From a virus, in the UHGV virus genome UHGV-0009628: a stretch of DNA of 29,410 nucleotides, one strand, 5' to 3'. The notes beneath the pieces are model-generated. The model made no database searches and was not told where the DNA came from. It saw only the letters and a program-made list of their open reading frames with translations. Shown one piece after another: positions 157 through 11,353 of this stretch; position 1 is the first letter of the stretch, and each line of letters starts with the position of its first letter. The position numbers were made by a program, and so were the translations under genes.

Positions 157-1170
157 TTACTCTACTGTGGACACTGTGTGGACACTCTCGGCTTCAGTAC
201 CACCTCTTAGCGGATTAAGAGAAATGGCGTCCTGAAGGTACTCTGGCGCAAAATGAGCGTAAACCATAGTTTGCTCAATCCGCGTGTGACCTAGTATCCG
301 TTGTAGCGTGATAATACTTCCTCCATTAATCATGAAATGAGTGGCAAAGCTGTGCCTTAGTGCATGTGTGGCTTGCCCCGTTGGCAAATCCGGTTTTATT
401 GCTTTCATTGTTCGTCTGAAGCGAGGGTAATCAGCATCAGGGAATAAAAAACCTCGTTTGTTATCCGCGATCATTTTGGCAACAGCCTCTGAGATCGGGA
501 CGGTGCGTGGTTTGTTTGTTTTCGTTTTAACAAACGTGACGCGGTTATGGATGATATTTTCTGCTTTCAAACGAGCTGCTTCTCCCCAACGTGCTCCTGT
601 ACTCAGGCAAAGAATCGCAATCTTTTTGTTGTCGCCGTCAAGTGCTGCAAGCAGTAAGGCAATTTCTTCCTGTGTGAGATAGCCTGTTTCTGGTTTTTCC
701 TCCTTAAGCCTCTTTGTCCCTCTGATAGGGTGCTCACCAAAGAATAACTCCGCTTCAATCAGGGCTGTAAACATGCCGCTAATACATGTTAAATCACGAT
801 TGATACTCGAAGGTTTAATACCCTGACTTCTTCGGGTGGCGCAGTACTGGCTGATAAGGGATTTCGTGATTTGAAATGCGCATGGGTCATTCGTTATTTT
901 TGTGAAGATTTCAATTTTTCCAAGATTAGATTTCCCATGCTCTTCGTGTTTACCCTTTAAATCCCACCAGATCTGTGTCAGTTCCGACAGACGTCGTTTG
1001 TCTGTTGGTTTTGATAGCCATTCTTTATTGTGGTGGTTGTACAACGTGTATTTTTCGAAAGCGACAGCTTCGCTTTTCTTATCAAACTTCCTACGGATAC
1101 GTTTTCCGTTACGTCCAGTAGGGCGGATGTCCACTTCATATCGACCATCATCGAGTTTTTTGATTGCCAT
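157..1170 (-). CDS. int: Tyrosine integrase (P2 Int family)
   Basis: 337 aa, ATG start. C-terminal catalytic region HALRHSFATHFMINGGSIITLQRILGHTRIEQTMVYAHF carries the R..H-x-x-R...Y signature of tyrosine recombinases. Position adjacent to att core. Confidence 0.95.
   Translation of the reverse strand: MAIKKLDDGRYEVDIRPTGRNGKRIRRKFDKKSEAVAFEKYTLYNHHNKEWLSKPTDKRRLSELTQIWWDLKGKHEEHGKSNLGKIEIFTKITNDPCAFQITKSLISQYCATRRSQGIKPSSINRDLTCISGMFTALIEAELFFGEHPIRGTKRLKEEKPETGYLTQEEIALLLAALDGDNKKIAILCLSTGARWGEAARLKAENIIHNRVTFVKTKTNKPRTVPISEAVAKMIADNKRGFLFPDADYPRFRRTMKAIKPDLPTGQATHALRHSFATHFMINGGSIITLQRILGHTRIEQTMVYAHFAPEYLQDAISLNPLRGGTEAESVHTVSTVE
166..184. promoter_or_regulatory. Two direct TGTGGACA repeats (166-173, 177-184) one helical turn apart; candidate Int arm-type binding sites
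   Basis: Exact 8-bp direct repeat with 11-bp periodicity inside the 3' end of int, next to the att core. Assignment to Int binding is from recollection of P2 attP architecture and is an inference. Confidence 0.4.
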
Positions 1171-3250: not shown

Positions 3251-3474
3251 TGCCGGACAACGTAGATTTTATTCAGGAACAACAGGCTGAATTACTGGAG
3301 CGTCAGATTAACGCGGCAAGGGTAAAACATTGCGGAGCTTCTGCGCTGGTTTGCGAAGAGTGTGACGCGCCAATACCTGCTGCCCGTCGTGCGGCTTATC
3401 CGTCAGCCACGCGTTGTGTTTCCTGCCAGTCAGTCTTTGAAGCAAAAAACAAACATTACCGGAGAACGGCATGA
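3250..3474 (+). CDS. TraR/DksA-type C4 zinc-finger protein (orf82 position)
   Basis: 74 aa; two Cys pairs CEECDAPIPAARRAAYPSATRCVSCQ form a C-x2-C...C-x2-C finger; TAATG coupling with the upstream ORF. Confidence 0.75.
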   Translation: MPDNVDFIQEQQAELLERQINAARVKHCGASALVCEECDAPIPAARRAAYPSATRCVSCQSVFEAKNKHYRRTA

Positions 3475-3746
3475 GTATTCGTATTGAAATTGGCGAACGT
3501 TATGTCGTTACCAGTGACAGCTTTCAGTTTATTCTCCACGAGAAAAAGAGAGCGGAAAGCGGTAAAAACGCCGGTCAGGAATGGCTGGCGGTGGTTGGTT
3601 ATTATCCGAAATTAAGCCAGCTCGTTTCCGGCCTGATGCATCACGATATTCTGACCGGAAGCGCAAAGTCTTTTGCTGATTTAAACGCGCAGGTTGAGCA
3701 ACTCAGCAGGCGTTGTTCAGAGGCTTTTGGCTCATATGGCCGTTAA
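3471..3746 (+). CDS. Early-operon hypothetical protein (orf83 position)
   Basis: 91 aa, ATG with GGAGAA SD; stop overlaps the start of A. Confidence 0.6.
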   Translation: MSIRIEIGERYVVTSDSFQFILHEKKRAESGKNAGQEWLAVVGYYPKLSQLVSGLMHHDILTGSAKSFADLNAQVEQLSRRCSEAFGSYGR

Positions 3747-5811
3747 AGCCTCCGGGCGTTTTGTCCCTCCTTCAGCATTTGCTGCAGGCACCGGTAAGGC
3801 GTTTACCGGTGCTTATGCATGGAACGCGCCACGCGAGGCCGTCGGGCGCGAAAGACCCCTTACACGTGACGAGATGCGTCAGGTGCAAGGTGTTTTATCC
3901 ACGATTAACCGCCTGCCTTACTTTTTGCGCTCGCTGTTTACTTCACGCTATGACTACATCCGGCGCAATAAAAGCCCGGTACACGGGTTTTATTTCCTCA
4001 CATCCACTTTTCAGCGTCGTTTATGGCCGCGCATTGAGCGTGTGAATCAGCGCCATGAAATGAACACCGACGCGTCGTTACTGTTTCTGGCAGAGCGTGA
4101 CCACTATGCGCGCCTGCCGGGAATGAATGACAAGGAGCTGAAAAAGTTTGCTGCCCGTATCTCATCGCAGCTTTTCATGATGTATGAGGAACTCAGCGAT
4201 GCCTGGGTGGATGCGCATGGCGAAAAAGAATCGCTGTTTACGGATGAGGCGCAGGCTCACCTCTATGGTCATGTTGCTGGCGCTGCACGTGCTTTCAATA
4301 TTTCCCCTCTCTACTGGAAAAAATACCGTAAAGGGCAGATGACCACGAGGCAGGCATATTCTGCCATTGCCCGTCTGTTTAACGATGAGTGGTGGACTCA
4401 TCAGCTTAAAGGCCAGCGTATGCGCTGGCATGAAGCGTTACTGATAGCTGTCGGGGAGGTCAATAAAGACCGTTCTCCTTATGCCAGTAAACACGCCATT
4501 CGTGATGTGCGTGCGCGCCGCCAGGCAAATCTGGAATTTCTTAAATCGTGTGACCTTGAAAACAGGGAAACCGGCGAGCGCATCGACCTTATCAGTAAGG
4601 TGATGGGCAGTATTTCTAATCCTGAAATTCGCCGGATGGAGCTGATGAACACCATTGCCGGTATTGAGCGTTACGCCGCCGCAGAGGGTGATGTGGGGAT
4701 GTTTATCACGCTGACCGCGCCGTCAAAGTATCACCCGACTCGTCAGGTCAGAAAAGGCGAAAGTAAAACCGTTCAGCTTAATCACGGCTGGAACGATGAG
4801 GCATTTAATCCAAAGGATGCGCAGCGTTATCTCTGCCGTATCTGGAGCCTGATGCGCACGGCATTCAAGGATAATGATTTACAGGTCTACGGTTTGCGAG
4901 TCGTCGAGCCACACCACGACGGAACGCCGCACTGGCATATGATGCTTTTTTGTAATCCACGCCAGCGTAACCAGATTATCGAAATCATGCGTCGCTATGC
5001 GCTCAAAGAGGATGGCGACGAAAGAGGAGCCGCGCGAAACCGTTTTCAGGCAAAACATCTTAACCGGGGCGGTGCTGCGGGGTATATCGCGAAATACATC
5101 TCAAAAAACATCGATGGCTATGCACTGGATGGTCAGCTCGATAACGATACCGGCAGGCCGCTGAAAGATACTGCTGCGGCTGTTACCGCATGGGCGTCAA
5201 CGTGGCGCATCCCGCAATTTAAAACGGTTGGCCTGCCGACAATGGGGGCTTACCGTGAACTACGCAAATTGCCTCGCGGCGTCAGCATTGCTGATGAGTT
5301 TGACGAACGAGTTGAGGCTGCACGTGCCGCCGCAGACAGTGGTGATTTTGCGTTGTATATCAGCGCGCAGGGTGGGGCAAATGTTCCGCGTGATTGCCAG
5401 ACTGTCAGAGTCGCCCGTAGCCCGTCGGATGACGTTAACGAGTACGAGGAAGAAGTCGGGAGAGTGGTCGGCATTTACGCGCCGCATCTCGGCGCGCGTC
5501 ATATTCATATCACCAGAACGACGGACTGGCGCATTGTGCCGAAAGTTCCGGTCGTTGAGCCTTTGACTTTAAAAAGCGGCATCGCCGCGCCTCGGAGTCC
5601 TGTCAATAACTGTGGAAAGCTCACTGGTGGTGATACTTCGTTACCGGCTCCCACACCTTCTGAGCACGCTGCAGCAGTGTTGGATTTGATTGATATAGGG
5701 GTGGTTAGTTGGAATGATGCTGAGGTGATGACAGTTCTTAGGAAGAGATTAAAAGATTACTCACGGGAATTGATGGTATTCAAAGGAAGGGCTAGCCAAC
5801 GCCCAATCTGA
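3736..5811 (+). CDS. A: Rolling-circle replication initiator A (phiX174 gpA-like nickase)
   Basis: 691 aa from ATG at 3736 (track start 3694 is TTG). Motifs GTPHWHMMLF (HUH-type metal-binding His pair) and AAGYIAKYISKNIDG (catalytic Tyr pair) typical of RCR initiators; position after orf83 as in P2. Confidence 0.9.
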   Translation: MAVKASGRFVPPSAFAAGTGKAFTGAYAWNAPREAVGRERPLTRDEMRQVQGVLSTINRLPYFLRSLFTSRYDYIRRNKSPVHGFYFLTSTFQRRLWPRIERVNQRHEMNTDASLLFLAERDHYARLPGMNDKELKKFAARISSQLFMMYEELSDAWVDAHGEKESLFTDEAQAHLYGHVAGAARAFNISPLYWKKYRKGQMTTRQAYSAIARLFNDEWWTHQLKGQRMRWHEALLIAVGEVNKDRSPYASKHAIRDVRARRQANLEFLKSCDLENRETGERIDLISKVMGSISNPEIRRMELMNTIAGIERYAAAEGDVGMFITLTAPSKYHPTRQVRKGESKTVQLNHGWNDEAFNPKDAQRYLCRIWSLMRTAFKDNDLQVYGLRVVEPHHDGTPHWHMMLFCNPRQRNQIIEIMRRYALKEDGDERGAARNRFQAKHLNRGGAAGYIAKYISKNIDGYALDGQLDNDTGRPLKDTAAAVTAWASTWRIPQFKTVGLPTMGAYRELRKLPRGVSIADEFDERVEAARAAADSGDFALYISAQGGANVPRDCQTVRVARSPSDDVNEYEEEVGRVVGIYAPHLGARHIHITRTTDWRIVPKVPVVEPLTLKSGIAAPRSPVNNCGKLTGGDTSLPAPTPSEHAAAVLDLIDIGVVSWNDAEVMTVLRKRLKDYSRELMVFKGRASQRPI

Positions 5812-5950
5812 TTATGTTTTGTAATGATAAGTTAATGCTGAATGAGTGGCTCGCGCATAACCTTGCGGGAAAAAGAGCATATTATGTACAGTTTTGAGGT
5901 TGGCTAGAGGGGATGGGCGAGATAGTTTGTGTTTGTGTGGGTTTGAGAAG

Positions 5951-5968
5951 TTTGATGCGCACATCAAA
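5951..5968. promoter_or_regulatory. Perfect 18-bp palindrome TTTGATGcgcaCATCAAA, candidate operator
   Basis: 7-bp inverted arms with a 4-bp spacer, directly upstream of the candidate -35 of the cargo cassette promoter. Confidence 0.35.
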
Positions 5969-5970
5969 AA

Positions 5971-5999
5971 TTGATACAACTGATTGAAAAAATGATAAA
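5971..5999 (+). promoter_or_regulatory. Candidate sigma70 promoter for the cargo cassette (-35 TTGATA 5971-5976, 17-bp spacer, -10 GATAAA 5994-5999)
   Basis: Hexamer match and spacing read from sequence, about 40 bp upstream of the ORF1 ATG, which has an AAGGGGGGAAG SD. Confidence 0.35.
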
Positions 6000-6036
6000 A
6001 AAGCTGTTAAATGCGTCAGTTTTCTAAGGGGGGAAG

Positions 6037-7167
6037 ATGAAAAAAATAACCAAGAGAGAAAGAGAGAGAGATATTTTACGATCCTATTTACATCGTACAG
6101 GAAGAGATGTTGTATCTGCAGGGCGCTCTAAGATTAATCCTATTTCAAAAGCATCAAAAATAAATCGTTGGATAAATGCGCAAATTAAAGATGGATTAAA
6201 TTGCGAAATAAGGAAAAATAGAGACCTTTTCCTTACTTTACCTAAAAAGATGAACTTTTCAAGTAATTACCATCGTACAATGCAAGCCATACAAACGATT
6301 AGGCATCTTACAGGGCGGAAGATATTTAATAACCAATGTTACCGTCTTTGTTTTGTTGACTTTTCGAAGATTGAATATATTTCTGCATCTGCCGCATTGG
6401 TATTGACCGCGGAATTATCAAAATGGGATGATTCGGTAAGGCAACGCATTCGCCCAAAAGTGAAAACGTGGAATAAAAACATACTCTCTCAATTTGATGA
6501 GTTGGGTTTTTTTGACTTATTTAGAAATAAAGATAGTTTTGAGCTTGAAAAAGAAAAGGAACCAAGTAATATCCGTTTTGTTAAGTATATGAAAGGACAT
6601 TTACATGATGATGAAAAAACTCAGCATTTAAAAAAAGAAATAAAGCGTATTGTGGGAGAAGACCTTGGTAAATGGACTTTCCTATACAGTGGTTTGTCCG
6701 AAGCTATTACAAATGTTGTTCATCATGCTTATCCAGATAATAAAGGCTATCATGAGCATGATAAAAAATGGTATTTAACTGCTTCATATGATAGTTCAAG
6801 TAGAATAATAAAAGTAGTGTTTTATGATCAAGGTATTACAATTCCTGGGTCTTTGCCGGAATCTAAACTCCATGAAAAGGTTTTAAATTACCTTTCGAAG
6901 TTACCGCTTGCAGAACGAAAAAGAGATGAACAATTGTTAAAGGCTGCAGTTGAAATCAAACGTTCTAGTACGGGGGAAGAGGATCGGGGTAAAGGCTTGC
7001 AGGACTTGTTGGAGTTCATAAAGCAACGTGGTGAAGGTTATCTTTCAATTATGAGTGGTAAAGGCCTTTACAAATACTCACAACATGATAAAAAATCTGA
7101 GGTAAAATCAGTAAGCTTCGCTCTGCCTGTTTGTGGTACACTTATAGTATGGAGTACAAAGCTATGA
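6037..7167 (+). CDS. Cargo ORF1: GHKL-superfamily ATPase/kinase-like protein (C-terminal half resembles RsbW/SpoIIAB-type anti-sigma-factor kinases), N-terminal about 200 aa unknown
   Basis: 376 aa, ATG with strong SD; about 33% GC against a GC-rich backbone. N-box-like LSEAITNVVHHAY (aa 220-232), G1-like YDQGITIPG (aa 262-270), G2-like RGKGLQDLLEF (aa 317-327). Motif-level recognition only. Confidence 0.6.
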   Translation: MKKITKRERERDILRSYLHRTGRDVVSAGRSKINPISKASKINRWINAQIKDGLNCEIRKNRDLFLTLPKKMNFSSNYHRTMQAIQTIRHLTGRKIFNNQCYRLCFVDFSKIEYISASAALVLTAELSKWDDSVRQRIRPKVKTWNKNILSQFDELGFFDLFRNKDSFELEKEKEPSNIRFVKYMKGHLHDDEKTQHLKKEIKRIVGEDLGKWTFLYSGLSEAITNVVHHAYPDNKGYHEHDKKWYLTASYDSSSRIIKVVFYDQGITIPGSLPESKLHEKVLNYLSKLPLAERKRDEQLLKAAVEIKRSSTGEEDRGKGLQDLLEFIKQRGEGYLSIMSGKGLYKYSQHDKKSEVKSVSFALPVCGTLIVWSTKL

Positions 7168-7553
7168 TTACTAGATTGGTTGCTAGCCTCATGAAAACAT
7201 TGAAGATTGGTTCAGAGTTCTCGAAAGTTCCCAGAGGCCGCTATCGTACTGACGGGACAGCAAGTGGTGAACGGTTTAGAGAAGATTTCTTAAGAAAGCG
7301 TCTAAGCTTGCTTTCTGCTGGGGAAAAATTGCAGATAGTCATCGATGATGATGTCGAAGGATATGGTTCGTCTTTTTTGGTGGAGGGCTTTGCGGGCATG
7401 GTAAAATATGGATATATGCATGCCAATGAGTTATTGTCTAAAATTGAAATTAAATATACTAATCCTGATTTTGATTTCTATAAAAAGAAAATAGAACAAT
7501 ATATCAACGAGGCGCAGTTTAATTCGAAACGATATGAGCCAACAGTCGAATAA
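7164..7553 (+). CDS. Cargo ORF2: small STAS-like (DUF4325-like) protein, candidate partner of the ORF1 kinase/ATPase
   Basis: 129 aa from ATG at 7164 (ATGA overlap with ORF1 stop, GGAG SD 10 nt upstream; track start 7131 is TTG). Segment SGERFREDFLRKRLSLLSAGEKLQIVIDDDVEGYGSSFLVEGFAGMV resembles the anti-sigma-antagonist/STAS pattern around the phospho-Ser. Confidence 0.5.
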   Translation: MITRLVASLMKTLKIGSEFSKVPRGRYRTDGTASGERFREDFLRKRLSLLSAGEKLQIVIDDDVEGYGSSFLVEGFAGMVKYGYMHANELLSKIEIKYTNPDFDFYKKKIEQYINEAQFNSKRYEPTVE

Positions 7554-8196
7554 TCCGATGTTTATTTTAGGTGAGGGTTCTGGTGAGTTCTCACCTAGTT
7601 TGCTTTTTATCAAGAAGGATAATGAAGAAGGCCTGAGTGCTACTCATGCAGTTAAGGATATTAATACGATAATTGAAGTAGCTAGTTCTAATATTGTTGA
7701 TGCAATACGGCATCCACCTGAAACGCCTATTTTATCGTCATCACTTATTACGGCTCTTATTAGTACTATTTGTGCGGCCACTGCCGCATTTGCATATAAT
7801 AAAGTCCATTGGCGTTCTGTTGTTAAACGGGAGACTAAAACCAAACTCCTGGAGAGTATTTCAGATGTGGTTAATGAGTTGCGTTCTGATGCTATTAGTT
7901 ATTGGTTGAAGGGGTATTCAAAAAAGTCGGCGAAGTCTCTCTTAGAAGAGGAAATGAGAATTAAGGCGAGTTTAAATATAATAAATTCGACTATAACAAT
8001 ATATGTTCAGCAAGAGTCGCGATGGAAAAGAAAGGATATTGAAGCTCAGTTAAGGGTTTTTCATGACGAACTTTTTGATATTATAACAGGTGATGATTTT
8101 GAGTCTCAGGCAAGGAAGCAGGATAAGGCAAAGGTTTCTGCTATTTCTACAAAGTGTGTGGCTTTTCGCGTTTTATTAAATACCATCAAGTTTTAA
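7534..8196 (+). CDS. Cargo ORF3: single-pass membrane protein, candidate effector
   Basis: 220 aa; overlaps ORF2 by 20 nt; one hydrophobic stretch PILSSSLITALISTICAATAAFAY (aa 65-88) followed by a charged, likely helical C-terminal region. No recognisable catalytic motif. Start could be 7558 instead. Confidence 0.5.
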   Translation: MSQQSNNPMFILGEGSGEFSPSLLFIKKDNEEGLSATHAVKDINTIIEVASSNIVDAIRHPPETPILSSSLITALISTICAATAAFAYNKVHWRSVVKRETKTKLLESISDVVNELRSDAISYWLKGYSKKSAKSLLEEEMRIKASLNIINSTITIYVQQESRWKRKDIEAQLRVFHDELFDIITGDDFESQARKQDKAKVSAISTKCVAFRVLLNTIKF

Positions 8197-8328
8197 GATA
8201 GCCATGCATGAGTTTGGTGCATGAAAATGCATGAGGTTTTACGAATTATTTTGGCTAAAATCAGCCTGCCCTGACTGGCTACGGCAGATATCATGCACCT
8301 GCATTAAAACCGCCCCATGAAGCGGGCG

Positions 8329-8516: not shown

Positions 8517-9551
8517 TCAGCCGTTGTCAGTGTCCAGTGAGTAGTTTTTAAAGCGGATGACCTCCTGACCGAGCCAGCCGTTTATTTCCCGAATCCTGTC
8601 CTGTAACGGGATAAGCTCATTGCGGACAAAGACCTTTGCCACTTTTTCAATATCACCCAGTGACCCGACGTTCTCCGGCTTGCCCCCCATCAACTGAAAG
8701 GGGATGCGGTGCGCGTCCAGCAGGTCAGCGGCGCTGGCTTTTTTGATATTAAAAAAATCGTCCTTCGTCGCCACTTCACTGAGGGGGATAATTTTAATGC
8801 CGTCGGCTTTCCCCTGTGGGGCATAGAGAAACAGGTTTTTAAAGTTGTTGCGGCCTTTCGACTTCACCATGTTTTCGCGGAGCATTTCGATATCGTTGCG
8901 ATCCTGCACGGCATCAGTGACGTACATGATATATCCGGCATGAGCGCCGTTTTCGTAATACTTGCGGCGGAACAGCGTGGCCGACTCATTCAGCCAGGCA
9001 GAATTAAGGGCGCTGAGATATTCCGGCAGGCCGTACAACTCCTGATTAATATCCGGCTCCAGCAGGTGAAACACGGAACCGGGCGCGAAGGCTGTCGGCT
9101 CGTTGAAGGACGGCACCCACCAGTAAACATCCTCTTCCACACCACGGCGGGTATATTTTGCCGGTGAGGTTTCCAGTCTGATGACCTTACCGGTGGTGCT
9201 GTAACGCTTTTCCAGAAACGCATTACCGAACACCAGAAAATCCAGCACAAAGCGGCTGAAATCCTGCTGGGAAAGCCACGGATGCGGGATAAATGTCGAG
9301 GCCAGAATATTGCGTTTGACGTAAATCGGGGAGCTGTGATGCACGGCAGCACGCAGGCTTTTTGCCAGACCGGTAAAGCTGACCGGTGGCTCATACCATC
9401 TGCCGTTACTGATGCACTCGACGTAATCCAGAATGTCACGGCGGTCGAGTACCGGCACCGGCTCACCAAAGGTGAATGCTTCCATTTTCGGGGCGCTGGC
9501 GGTCATTGTTTTTGCCGCAGGTTGCGGTGTTTTCCCTTTTTTCTTGCTCAT
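8517..9551 (-). CDS. Q: Portal protein
   Basis: 344 aa, same length and position as P2 Q; ATG overlaps the P stop (ATGA). Confidence 0.9.
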   Translation of the reverse strand: MSKKKGKTPQPAAKTMTASAPKMEAFTFGEPVPVLDRRDILDYVECISNGRWYEPPVSFTGLAKSLRAAVHHSSPIYVKRNILASTFIPHPWLSQQDFSRFVLDFLVFGNAFLEKRYSTTGKVIRLETSPAKYTRRGVEEDVYWWVPSFNEPTAFAPGSVFHLLEPDINQELYGLPEYLSALNSAWLNESATLFRRKYYENGAHAGYIMYVTDAVQDRNDIEMLRENMVKSKGRNNFKNLFLYAPQGKADGIKIIPLSEVATKDDFFNIKKASAADLLDAHRIPFQLMGGKPENVGSLGDIEKVAKVFVRNELIPLQDRIREINGWLGQEVIRFKNYSLDTDNG

Positions 9552-11323
9552 CAGTAAAACTCCAGAATGGTGGATGTCAGCGGGGTGCTGATACCGGCGG
9601 TGAGTGGCTCATTTAACAGGGCGTGCATGGTCGCCCAGGCGAGGTCGGCGTGGCTGGCTTCCTCGCTGCGGCTGGCCTCATAGGTGGCACTGCGTCCGCT
9701 GCTGGTCATGGTCTTGCGGATAGCCATAAACGAGCTGGTGATGTCGGTGGCGCTGACGTCATATTCCAGACAGCCACGGCGGATAACGTCTTTTGCCTTG
9801 AGCACCATTGCGGTTTTCATTTCCGGCGTGTAGCGGATGTCGCGCGCGGCAGGATAGAACGAGCGCACGAGCTGGAACACGCCGACACCGAGGCCGGTGG
9901 CATCAATACCGATGTATTCGACGTTGTATTTTTCGGTGAGTTTGCGGATGGATTCCGCCTGGGTGGCAAAGTCCATGCCTTTCCACTGGTGACGCTCAAG
10001 TATTCTGAATTTGCCACCGGCAACCACCGGCGGTGCCAGTACCACGCATCCGGCGCTGTCGCCACGGTGTGACGGGTCGTAACCAATCCAGACCGGGCGT
10101 GAGCCGAACGGATTGGCGGCAAACGGCGCATAGTCTTCCCATTCTTCCAGCGTGTCGACCATGCAGCGTTGCAACTCCTCGAACGGGAACACCGACGCCT
10201 TGTCGTCAACAAATTCACACATGAACAGGTTTTTAAAATCGTCGGCGCTGTTTTCGCGTTTGAGCTGCTCAATGTCGAACAGCGTGCAGCCGCCTTTCAG
10301 GGCGTCCTCAATGGTGACAATCTGCCGCCACTGGCCGTCCGCACAGAGAAGACCTCCGGCAAGTGCGTTATGACTGACGTCGATTTCCACGCGTTCAGCG
10401 GCGCTGGCGCGTCCCCGGTTAAACAGTTCACCCGACCAGAACGGGTAGGCGTCGTGCGCCAGCGTGGACGGGGTGGAGAAATAGGTCGAACGCAGGTGAC
10501 TCTGTGAGGCCATGCCTGATGCCACCTTACGCAGTACCTGAAAATTCGGGATCCAGAAAATCTCATCGACGTACAGGTCGCCGTTATGGCTCTGCGCGGT
10601 GTTGGAGTTGGTGCCGAGAAAAATCAGTTTTGCGCCATTATTGCCCAGGACAATCGGGTCACCGGTCAGGTCAACGTCAACCAGACGGGCAAAGGCGATG
10701 ATGTATTCGCGGAACACATACGCCTGCGTTTTACTGGCCGACAGAAAAATCTGGTTATGGCCGGTTTTCAGGGCGCGCAGCAGCGCCTCGCGGGAAAAAT
10801 AAAACGTCGCGCCAATCTGGCGGGATTTCAGGATATCGCGGATGCGGTGCTCAAGCCCGGCGCGATACCAGTGCAACTGATATTCGAAAGACTGCTCAAA
10901 GAAAATCTGCTCCAGCTTTTCGATGGCTTCGTCACTGAAAAAATTCTTTTTCGGTTTGCGACGCCCGCCTTTGTTGCGGTTAGCGACGTTCGGATTAAGG
11001 TCTGCCTCGTTGCCGGTCTGGCTGTAACGGTTGACCCGTGCCAGCCGTTCAATCTGGCGTCCGAGCAGGTCAATTTCCTTGAAGTCACCGCCGGTTTTCT
11101 GCGGTTTGATGATGAGCTGGGTCAGCCGCGCTTCCAGACTCATTTCGACACGGCTGATGGGGGCAACGCTGTCCCAGCCGTCGCGCTGTTTCCAGCTCTG
11201 CACCGTCGGGCGTTTCATCTGCAACATGGCGGCAATCTGCGGCACGGAAAACCCCTGCCAGTACAGCAGCGCCGCCTGACGACGTGGGTCGTGTAAAAGA
11301 GTGGTGTCTGTGGTGATGGTCAT
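9551..11323 (-). CDS. P: Terminase large (ATPase) subunit
   Basis: 590 aa from ATG at 11323 with GAGG SD (track start 11353 is TTG); N-terminus MTITTDTTLL; same length and position as P2 P, divergent from O. Confidence 0.9.
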   Translation of the reverse strand: MTITTDTTLLHDPRRQAALLYWQGFSVPQIAAMLQMKRPTVQSWKQRDGWDSVAPISRVEMSLEARLTQLIIKPQKTGGDFKEIDLLGRQIERLARVNRYSQTGNEADLNPNVANRNKGGRRKPKKNFFSDEAIEKLEQIFFEQSFEYQLHWYRAGLEHRIRDILKSRQIGATFYFSREALLRALKTGHNQIFLSASKTQAYVFREYIIAFARLVDVDLTGDPIVLGNNGAKLIFLGTNSNTAQSHNGDLYVDEIFWIPNFQVLRKVASGMASQSHLRSTYFSTPSTLAHDAYPFWSGELFNRGRASAAERVEIDVSHNALAGGLLCADGQWRQIVTIEDALKGGCTLFDIEQLKRENSADDFKNLFMCEFVDDKASVFPFEELQRCMVDTLEEWEDYAPFAANPFGSRPVWIGYDPSHRGDSAGCVVLAPPVVAGGKFRILERHQWKGMDFATQAESIRKLTEKYNVEYIGIDATGLGVGVFQLVRSFYPAARDIRYTPEMKTAMVLKAKDVIRRGCLEYDVSATDITSSFMAIRKTMTSSGRSATYEASRSEEASHADLAWATMHALLNEPLTAGISTPLTSTILEFY

Positions 11324-11353
11324 GAATACCTCGCCGTGATGAATACACGGCAA

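Follow-up and report, generated by a model that had tools for sequence, protein, structure and literature searches.

The virus genome UHGV-0009628, a stretch of 29,410 nucleotides analysed here at its full length and called the window below, is a P2-like (Peduovirus-type) Escherichia coli prophage that carries a cargo island of three co-oriented open reading frames (ORFs), designated ORF1, ORF2 and ORF3. The last of these, ORF3, is the subject of this report. An original prediction, made from the sequence of the window, had proposed it as a small single-pass membrane protein and candidate effector of abortive infection. The gene itself was correctly called, with the same coordinates, plus strand, ATG start and length of 220 amino acids (aa) recovered here. 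The features recognised within it are as follows.

7534..8196, plus strand: ORF3 coding sequence, 220 aa, ATG start; alternative start at 7558 (Met9)
7534..7728, plus strand: N-terminal region, aa 1-65; differs in sequence and length between members, largely disordered and periplasmic by prediction, with a short helix at aa 43-59
7729..7797, plus strand: transmembrane helix, aa 66-88, from hydropathy; kept in 42 of 45 relatives
7798..7833, plus strand: predicted cytoplasmic juxtamembrane belt, aa 89-100; conserved Asn89, His92 and Trp93, then a Lys/Arg-rich stretch
7834..8193, plus strand: predicted cytoplasmic four-helix bundle, aa 101-220; its first helix is continuous with the transmembrane helix
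7900..7917, plus strand: motif Y123-W124-x-x-G-Y128, where bundle helix 1 turns into helix 2; all 45 diverse members keep Y123 and W124
8077..8115, plus strand: motif D182-x-x-T-G-D-D-F-E-S-x-x-R194, spanning the end of helix 3 and the loop before helix 4; conservation in the family peaks here

ORF3 encodes a conserved single-pass membrane protein

ORF3 is a genuine and conserved bitopic (single-pass) inner-membrane protein, with a predicted N-out/C-in topology. Its top hydrophobic window is aa 66-84 on all three scales applied, with a Kyte-Doolittle mean of 1.78 over 19 residues, a Wimley-White octanol score of -4.0 and a Hessa sum of +1.2; the second-best Kyte-Doolittle window in the protein reaches 1.02. 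A peak of this height is not by itself rare, being reached in 808 of 5000 shuffles (16%) of the ORF3 protein, and the transmembrane helix is accepted because it is conserved in the family. A single window scoring at least 1.6 is found in 42 of 45 diverse relatives (mean 2.10), a second such window occurs in just one of the 45, and the best hydrophobic window stops just ahead of the aligned Asn89 in 44 of them. The one clear transmembrane helix originally placed at about aa 65-88 therefore stands, as a single hydrophobic helix at aa 66-88 whose position is conserved in the family.

Basic residues are unevenly distributed about this helix. Counted over 15 flanking residues, Lys and Arg number one on the N-terminal side versus five on the C-terminal side in ORF3, the means for the 45 relatives are 0.67 versus 3.87, and the positive-inside rule is obeyed throughout. 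The charge bias predicts a periplasmic N-terminus and a cytoplasmic C-terminal domain. Within the helix runs a ladder of small residues, A74, T78 (Ala in 60% of members), A81 (Gly in 69%), A82, A84 (Ser in 58%) and A85, spaced as small-xxx-small along one face; positions 74, 78, 81, 82, 84 and 85 are occupied by small residues in 78-100% of members. The ladder is of a kind typical of helix-helix packing. The membrane helix surpasses bundle helices 2 and 3 in conservation, with a mean column entropy of 2.14 versus about 2.6, and conservation extends into the residues just past it (N89 in 93% of members, H92 in 80%, W93 in 87%). The stretch that precedes the helix varies from 1 to 123 aa across the family, shows the highest column entropy in ORF3 and has a predicted local distance difference test score (pLDDT) below 50 at aa 1-42. 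This N-terminal tail, periplasmic by prediction, is absent in some members; it is variable and dispensable.

An AlphaFold2 model of ORF3, built from a 16-sequence alignment, contains helices at aa 43-59 (short), 69-126 (spanning the membrane segment), 130-159, 163-185 and 198-219, and leaves aa 1-42 disordered. The C-terminal 130 residues or so pack as a four-helix bundle. The charged and likely helical C-terminal region that had been anticipated is borne out, with modelled helices at a pLDDT of about 90 and a net charge of +7 over aa 89-220. Y123, W124, E140, G186 and F189 are invariant in the family, and the full set of invariant or nearly invariant positions comprises these together with A85, N89, H92 and W93, which sit at the cytoplasmic end of the membrane helix, and K144, D182, T185, E190, S191, R194, I204 and C208. 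Within the motif that runs from D182 to R194, D182, T185 and E190 are conserved in at least 90% of members, S191 in 80% (a small residue in 98%) and R194 in 87%. The order of helices in the model would place the Tyr-Trp turn and the TGDDFES loop together at the membrane-distal end of the bundle, and most of the residues Y123, W124, E140, K144, D182, T185, G186, F189, E190, S191 and R194 at that end or close to it.

A family without a match in Pfam, NCBIfam, PHROG or PADLOC

A word-indexed search returned 29 close ORF3 clusters, all from Enterobacterales and with no Pfam domain among them. When 1.84 billion representative proteins were searched in full with a profile, the family grew to 241 clusters, 156 of them at E<=1e-10, with clusters defined at 50% identity. 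All members are stand-alone proteins of about 140-280 aa, and their conserved core consists of the helix plus the bundle. ORF3 and its relatives match no family in Pfam, NCBIfam, PHROG or PADLOC. When 45 diverse members were scanned, Pfam gave isolated single matches only and PADLOC scattered single matches at E>=7e-4. Among solved structures, searches with the ORF3 sequence and fold retrieved generic helical bundles only, and a search of PDB with the family profile retrieved transmembrane-like noise.

A match of ORF3 to RsbRD_N (E=0.09) was likewise dismissed as noise. The possibility that ORF3 is a phage holin was considered and rejected, as ORF3 is part of the A/Q island, related prophages have their genes for a P2-type holin and lysozyme several kilobases off, past the capsid genes, and ORF3 has no PHROG holin match.

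ORF3 is the obligatory third gene of a mobile module

The order ORF1-ORF2-ORF3, with genes adjacent or overlapping, is found in 21 of the 21 loci, reached via ORF3 or ORF1, that have enough upstream sequence. ORF3 is thereby established as the obligatory third gene of a GHKL-ATPase / DUF4325 / single-pass module, and the module is likewise established as recurrent cargo of the defence hotspots of mobile elements. Prophage copies are of P2 type, occur in Escherichia, Raoultella, Erwinia, Serratia and Pantoea, and always adjoin the portal gene. Chromosomal copies occur in Vibrio, Shewanella, Colwellia, Cycloclasticus, Methylococcaceae, Nitrosomonas, Gallionella, Desulfocapsaceae and Rhodobacteraceae, so that the chromosomal range of the trio takes in the gamma-, beta- and alpha-proteobacteria as well as Desulfocapsaceae. 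The neighbours of chromosomal copies are mixed and include integrases, group II intron reverse transcriptases, IS21 and HipA in addition to housekeeping genes. In Vibrio sp. AND4 (NZ_ABGR01000004), the trio at 5116-7483 lies between the 3' end of zorD (82-1374; Zorya, match E=2e-290) and a gene for an OLD/GajA/AriA-like ATPase (9351-11336), which is a defence-island arrangement.

The Erwinia billingiae CP142209 prophage has its ORF1 homologue split between two frames (profile matches at 6484-6864 and 6798-7658), and a near-identical contig has it intact. A frameshift that inactivates the ATPase in one strain, leaving ORF2 and ORF3 intact, is a possible explanation.

More distant versions of the trio were also found. 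The P4-satellite hotspot system 69, annotated as HATPase_c plus DUF4325 and represented by nine loci, appears in Table S1B of an earlier survey and was not tested there (PMC9122126). Its protein 1 is homologous to ORF1 (hhalign 98.4%, E=1e-14), and its third protein is an N-anchored, single-pass helical protein of 165 aa without detectable similarity to ORF3. The DUF4325 protein of system 69 has Arg-Ser in place of the Ser-Ser of ORF2 (GRSF), keeping only the second Ser. In a Helicobacter prophage, the third protein of the trio is again N-anchored and single-pass, with no detectable homology to ORF3; the P4 and Helicobacter third proteins both lack the TGDDFES motif and the periplasmic tail.

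Marinobacter phage AS1 (MK088078) carries a distant trio, AS1_41 to AS1_39 (3336-5262), beside a Cro/CI-type regulator and in the orientation of the putative repressor side, which suggests expression in the lysogen. AS1 gene 41 is 27% identical to ORF1. AS1_39 scores 85% (E=6e-6) in comparison with ORF3, over the helix and first bundle helix and including the E-Y-W motif, and is probably a distant ORF3 homologue; it also has the Y-W-x-x-G-Y motif.

Start codon, selection and expression signals

The original prediction had ORF3 overlap ORF2 by 20 nucleotides. This holds if ATG 7534 starts ORF3, and fails if the start is ATG 7558 (Met9), the one chosen by the Prokaryotic Genome Annotation Pipeline (PGAP) in a 99.4% identical prophage: the stop codon of ORF2 is at 7551-7553, ATG 7558 lies 4 nucleotides past that stop, and the overlap is then zero. 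No clear Shine-Dalgarno sequence was seen ahead of either ATG, and the choice between 7534 and 7558 is ambiguous.

ORF3 is under strong purifying selection. Relative to the Raoultella orthologue, the ratio of nonsynonymous to synonymous substitution rates (dN/dS) is 0.07 for the whole gene, falls to 0.033 in the bundle and rises to 0.26 over aa 1-60; these values come from the closest orthologue pair alone, synonymous sites being saturated in other pairs. Divergence from the Cycloclasticus copy leaves ORF1 49% identical, ORF2 58% and ORF3 27%, which makes ORF3 faster-evolving than its partners.

A terminator-like 14-base-pair hairpin with a T-rich run occurs at 7567-7598, within ORF3 codons 12-22. 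Its RNA folding energy of -17.4 kcal/mol (z = -2.7) was equalled by 5 of 200 shuffles. The hairpin could be an attenuator of potentially toxic ORF3 expression, or it could be there by chance.

The partner genes

Upstream of ORF3, the operon consists of the following.

5943..5971, plus strand: promoter-like site upstream of ORF1, TTGAGA, 17 nucleotides, AAAAAT; consensus match only
6037..7167, plus strand: ORF1, 376 aa; basic N-terminus, alpha/beta domain, and a GHKL (Bergerat-fold) ATPase/kinase in the C-terminal half
7164..7553, plus strand: ORF2, 129 aa; DUF4325, STAS-like; name and start from PGAP

ORF1 matches phrog_3364 at 4e-45, and its match to Pfam HATPase_c_2 (E=0.006, 16.9 bits) falls under the cut-off of 27.4 bits. 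The ATP-binding motifs E222/N226, D264-x-G266, R317-G-x-G-L321 and G367-T368 are invariant in the ORF1 family. Similarity to RsbW is weak and lies at the N-box, consisting of an NCBIfam match and a match in a profile search of PDB (E=0.73). For the AlphaFold2 model of ORF1 (predicted TM-score, pTM, 0.76), the nearest solved folds are SpoIIAB, with target-normalised TM-scores of 0.60-0.62 and a Foldseek E-value of about 2e-3, and GyrB ATPase domains.

Residues 1-35 of ORF1 (6037-6140) form a conserved, very basic segment, MKKxTxKQRxRDV...HRxG, in which D12 and R20 are invariant. The model shows it as a helix that leads into a linker of low confidence; the segment might bind nucleic acid or the membrane surface. 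The N-terminal domain of ORF1 was considered as a second STAS/DUF4325 domain, the motif ISxSAALVLTAE having looked STAS-like; this found no support, with an hhalign probability of 0.2% against ORF2 and no PDB match for the profile.

ORF2 matches Pfam DUF4325 (PF14213), described by Pfam as STAS-like, with E=3.8e-5 and 23.8 bits, just over the 23.0 cut-off. It has an invariant G68-S69-S70-F71-L72 stretch, with S69 and S70 invariant in 14 orthologues, and it gave no profile match to solved STAS proteins. A profile search with ORF2 retrieved 4690 DUF4325 proteins; among the matches listed there were close orthologues only. The start of ORF2 is itself ambiguous, the mechanically called ORF running from TTG 7131 and the PGAP version from ATG 7164. 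The latter codon overlaps the ORF1 stop by 4 nucleotides, in an ATGA-type coupling junction.

Scans with Pfam, PADLOC and NCBIfam found no effector-type domain (nuclease, NADase or protease) elsewhere in the operon. No PP2C phosphatase, sigma factor or DNA-binding output is encoded in the operon, and no phosphatase or sigma factor in the conserved neighbourhood.

Position in the prophage

The prophage genes and the island between them are arranged in the window as follows.

157-1170, minus strand: integrase
3694-5811, plus strand: replication gene A (gpA)
5768..8285 (approximate), strand not applicable: low-GC cargo island, 35-43% GC versus 52-58% in the flanks, between gene A and cos/portal Q
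8517-9551, minus strand: portal gene Q
9551-11353, minus strand: terminase

Similarity of gpA to the gpA proteins of P2-like phages ends about 14-18 codons short of the stop codon (5755-5811), which puts the left junction of the cargo island within gene A; similarity to P2-like phages picks up again at about 8286. PGAP treats the replication endonuclease of the 99.4% identical prophage as a pseudogene and marks it incomplete. Of 5426 complete E. coli genomes, 15 carry the full island and more than 2100 its flanks; the island is absent from the sequenced phages of the INPHARED collection.

The A/Q interval is the site of old and tin in phage P2 and a hotspot of anti-phage systems, and several of its other cargoes have been validated as defence systems (PMC9122126). 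ORF3, proposed from the start as the third and last gene of a cargo operon, does indeed end a three-gene island in this hotspot. Table S5 of the same study lists the three proteins of the present cassette, WP_032254602 + WP_032254618 + WP_126646822, as P2-hotspot cargo, under the description "hypothetical + DUF4325 + hypothetical" (PMC9122126), and the ORF1-ORF2-ORF3 cassette is not among the systems cloned and tested in Rousset et al. 2022 (PMC9122126). According to a survey of P2/P4 hotspots from 2026, the hotspot of 19% of P2 elements holds nothing but genes of unknown function, and protection was seen for most loci of this kind tested in P4; the cassette matches none of the systems newly named there (PMC13586616).

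The role of ORF3

The original interpretation is supported in part, as to the kind of protein and its place in the operon and the hotspot; collapse of the membrane potential by ORF3 is a candidate mechanism. We tentatively favour a role for ORF3 as the membrane-acting output of an abortive-infection system, under the control of a SpoIIAB/SpoIIAA-like switch formed by ORF1 and ORF2. The two partners would sense infection through that switch and would control ORF3 by binding or phosphorylating the conserved tip of its bundle. Once released or activated, ORF3 would self-associate by the small-residue, glycine-zipper-like face of its helix and render the inner membrane leaky, and growth of the infected cell would stop before the competing phage could finish its cycle. 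An effector is favoured because the operon is without any other effector-type domain, because what is conserved in the membrane helix is a packing face and not hydrophobicity alone, and because ORF1 and ORF2 resemble a kinase/STAS switch of the sort that normally restrains an output protein. We infer that the conserved bundle tip is a natural docking or phosphorylation site.

Several observations weigh against an effector role. The strongest conservation in ORF3 is in the cytoplasmic bundle, not in the membrane segment, and the hydrophobicity of the E. coli protein is near the low end for the family (1.78 versus a mean of 2.10). PADLOC-DB v2.0.0, which includes 1TM and 2TM (one- and two-transmembrane) effector models, Rst systems and PDC candidates, has no match to ORF1, ORF2 or ORF3 at E<=0.1, and full-text literature searches returned no characterisation of a DUF4325 or STAS-like protein in phage defence, nor of the cassette. 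Many of the non-prophage loci are flanked by housekeeping genes. The analogy to partner switching rests on weak sequence matches, with HATPase_c_2 below threshold, DUF4325 barely above it and no PP2C phosphatase in the operon. Finally, plug-in effectors such as those of CBASS, Pycsar and Thoeris get exchanged, and a swap of the third gene for a soluble enzymatic effector was not found at any locus examined, even where ORF1 identity drops to 23-27%. A third gene that was not seen to be exchanged in this way may be integral to sensing or localisation.

This last consideration leads to the alternative that survives best, a serious rival if on the unlikely side, whose anchor form the original prediction had itself raised and in which ORF3 is a membrane anchor or membrane-located sensor that tethers ORF1 and ORF2, and ORF1 is the effector. 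ORF3 may then signal something that happens at the envelope, for instance phage DNA injection or a perturbed membrane, and the GHKL protein ORF1 would phosphorylate phage or host proteins or remodel them at the expense of ATP. Such an arrangement would suit a third gene that is always single-pass in the versions examined, the resemblance of the most conserved residues of ORF3, a cytoplasmic patch, to a docking surface, and an ORF1 with intact catalytic motifs and a 200-aa N-terminal region that could bind substrates. The periplasmic tail is the fastest-evolving part of ORF3, as would fit a phage-exposed surface or a dispensable linker; several family members have no tail, however, so it is no essential sensor. 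Nor would a passive anchor be expected to bear a conserved ladder of small residues in a helix that varies less than helices 2 and 3 of the bundle; the ladder suggests specific packing instead. In all characterised cases, moreover, SpoIIAB/RsbW-type kinases are regulators rather than terminal effectors.

It is improbable that the cassette has no part in defence and is instead a signalling module of the partner-switching type, with membrane sensor, kinase and STAS-like protein, that tunes host or prophage physiology, as in a stress response or lysogenic conversion, and that rides in a variable prophage locus by chance. Pairs of GHKL serine kinases and STAS proteins do regulate sigma factors, biofilm formation and secretion, many chromosomal copies of the trio lie beside uvrB, gidA/gidB, an aminotransferase or an ABC transporter, and PADLOC does not recognise the cassette. 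The trio has nevertheless been captured repeatedly and independently in P2/P4 defence hotspots and beside the immunity region of a Marinobacter phage, and its Vibrio copy sits in a defence island. Its distribution is patchy and horizontally transferred, as the 15 of 5426 E. coli genomes and the low-GC island attest, and it encodes no DNA-binding or sigma-like output.

We give still less credence to superinfection exclusion, in which ORF3 would block entry of phage DNA at the inner membrane without killing the cell, and ORF1 and ORF2 would modulate it. Exclusion is a common role of small inner-membrane proteins of prophages, T4 Imm, P22 SieA and HK97 gp15 among them, and the variable periplasmic tail could touch the injection machinery. 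Yet the known exclusion proteins are products of single genes, whereas ORF3 has an obligatory ATPase and a STAS-like protein as partners; the tail is absent in some members, and the cassette occurs outside prophages as well.

Least likely is an addiction module, resembling toxin-antitoxin pairs, that stabilises the prophage through an ORF3 membrane toxin neutralised by ORF1 and ORF2 with no sensing of phage: tight or overlapping gene junctions do suggest coupled, stoichiometric expression, and the P4 cargo gop-beta-cII, which has a membrane toxin, acts in toxin-antitoxin fashion (PMC9122126), but conservation of three genes with an intact ATPase is unusual in simple addiction modules, integrated P2 prophages need no segregational stabilisation, and addiction in any case overlaps with abortive infection and does not exclude it.

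Significance

Membrane effectors that end defence operons are already well known, as is the cargo of P2 hotspots. What is new is that a SpoIIAB-like GHKL enzyme is combined with a STAS-like protein and a single-pass protein, an arrangement so far undescribed as a defence system and missed by PADLOC v2. An extended form of the effector proposal is rather doubtful: that these genes constitute a new anti-phage family of Proteobacteria, P2, P4 and temperate phages, in which a SpoIIAB-like kinase and a STAS-like protein would gate a glycine-zipper-like, membrane-permeabilising ORF3, a sequestered output in the place of a sigma factor. If the cassette defends against phage, it would be a compact three-gene addition to the bacterial immune repertoire; it would tie the classical anti-sigma kinase / STAS partner switch to immunity, and would offer a simple model of a single-pass helix switched into a membrane-damaging state. 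Should ORF3 be merely an anchor, an obligatory GHKL/STAS module tethered to the membrane has still been defined. The breadth of the family, some 240 clusters plus the P4, Marinobacter phage and Helicobacter prophage versions, matters for annotation of the "dark matter" of prophages and defence islands, and the invariant residues of ORF3 open the family to direct mutagenesis.

Comparison with known systems

The cassette shares the niche of the P2/P4 variable hotspots with three validated systems described there, reverse transcriptase (RT)-nitrilase + 1TM, 2TM + 1TM + TIR of phage AC1, and hydrolase + 3TM, all of which are proposed to act by abortive infection (PMC9122126). Like the cassette, these systems have a small N-anchored membrane protein last in, or alongside, genes for cytoplasmic enzymes or sensors. 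The partners differ, being a GHKL ATPase and a DUF4325 protein in the cassette and RT, TIR or HAD in the hotspot systems. Kinship of ORF3 with the 1TM effector of the RT-nitrilase system was examined and rejected, the hhalign probability for the ORF3 family being 1.1%, and the sequence motifs of ORF3 were not found in the tables of tested systems (PMC9122126).

Another three-gene P2-hotspot cargo of unknown domains is Rst_3HP ("hp + hp + hp"), a system of three hypothetical proteins that protects against P1 (PMC9122126). Its proteins, of about 338, 358 and 227 aa and with no transmembrane protein noted, are unlike those of the cassette. Identity of the two was rejected, as the sequences on plasmid pFR109 differ in size and content and hhalign gives the ORF3 family 0.2% against protein 3.

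To our knowledge, partner-switching logic has so far been found only in the regulation of sigma factors and biofilms. The catalytic domain of ORF1 is most like SpoIIAB/RsbW in sequence (N-box) and in predicted fold, and ORF2 may correspond to the STAS partner SpoIIAA/RsbV, going by its DUF4325 match and the invariant Ser-Ser of its Gly-Ser-Ser-Phe loop; all of these similarities are weak. Unlike SpoIIAB/RsbW, ORF1 has 376 aa with an extra N-terminal region of 200 aa, and unlike partner-switching modules the cassette encodes no sigma factor or PP2C phosphatase, and its output would be a membrane protein. The helical protein ORF3 would then stand where the sigma factor stands, as the sequestered output. 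In gene arrangement, P4 system 69 and genes 41-40-39 of Marinobacter phage AS1 have the same three-part architecture as the cassette.

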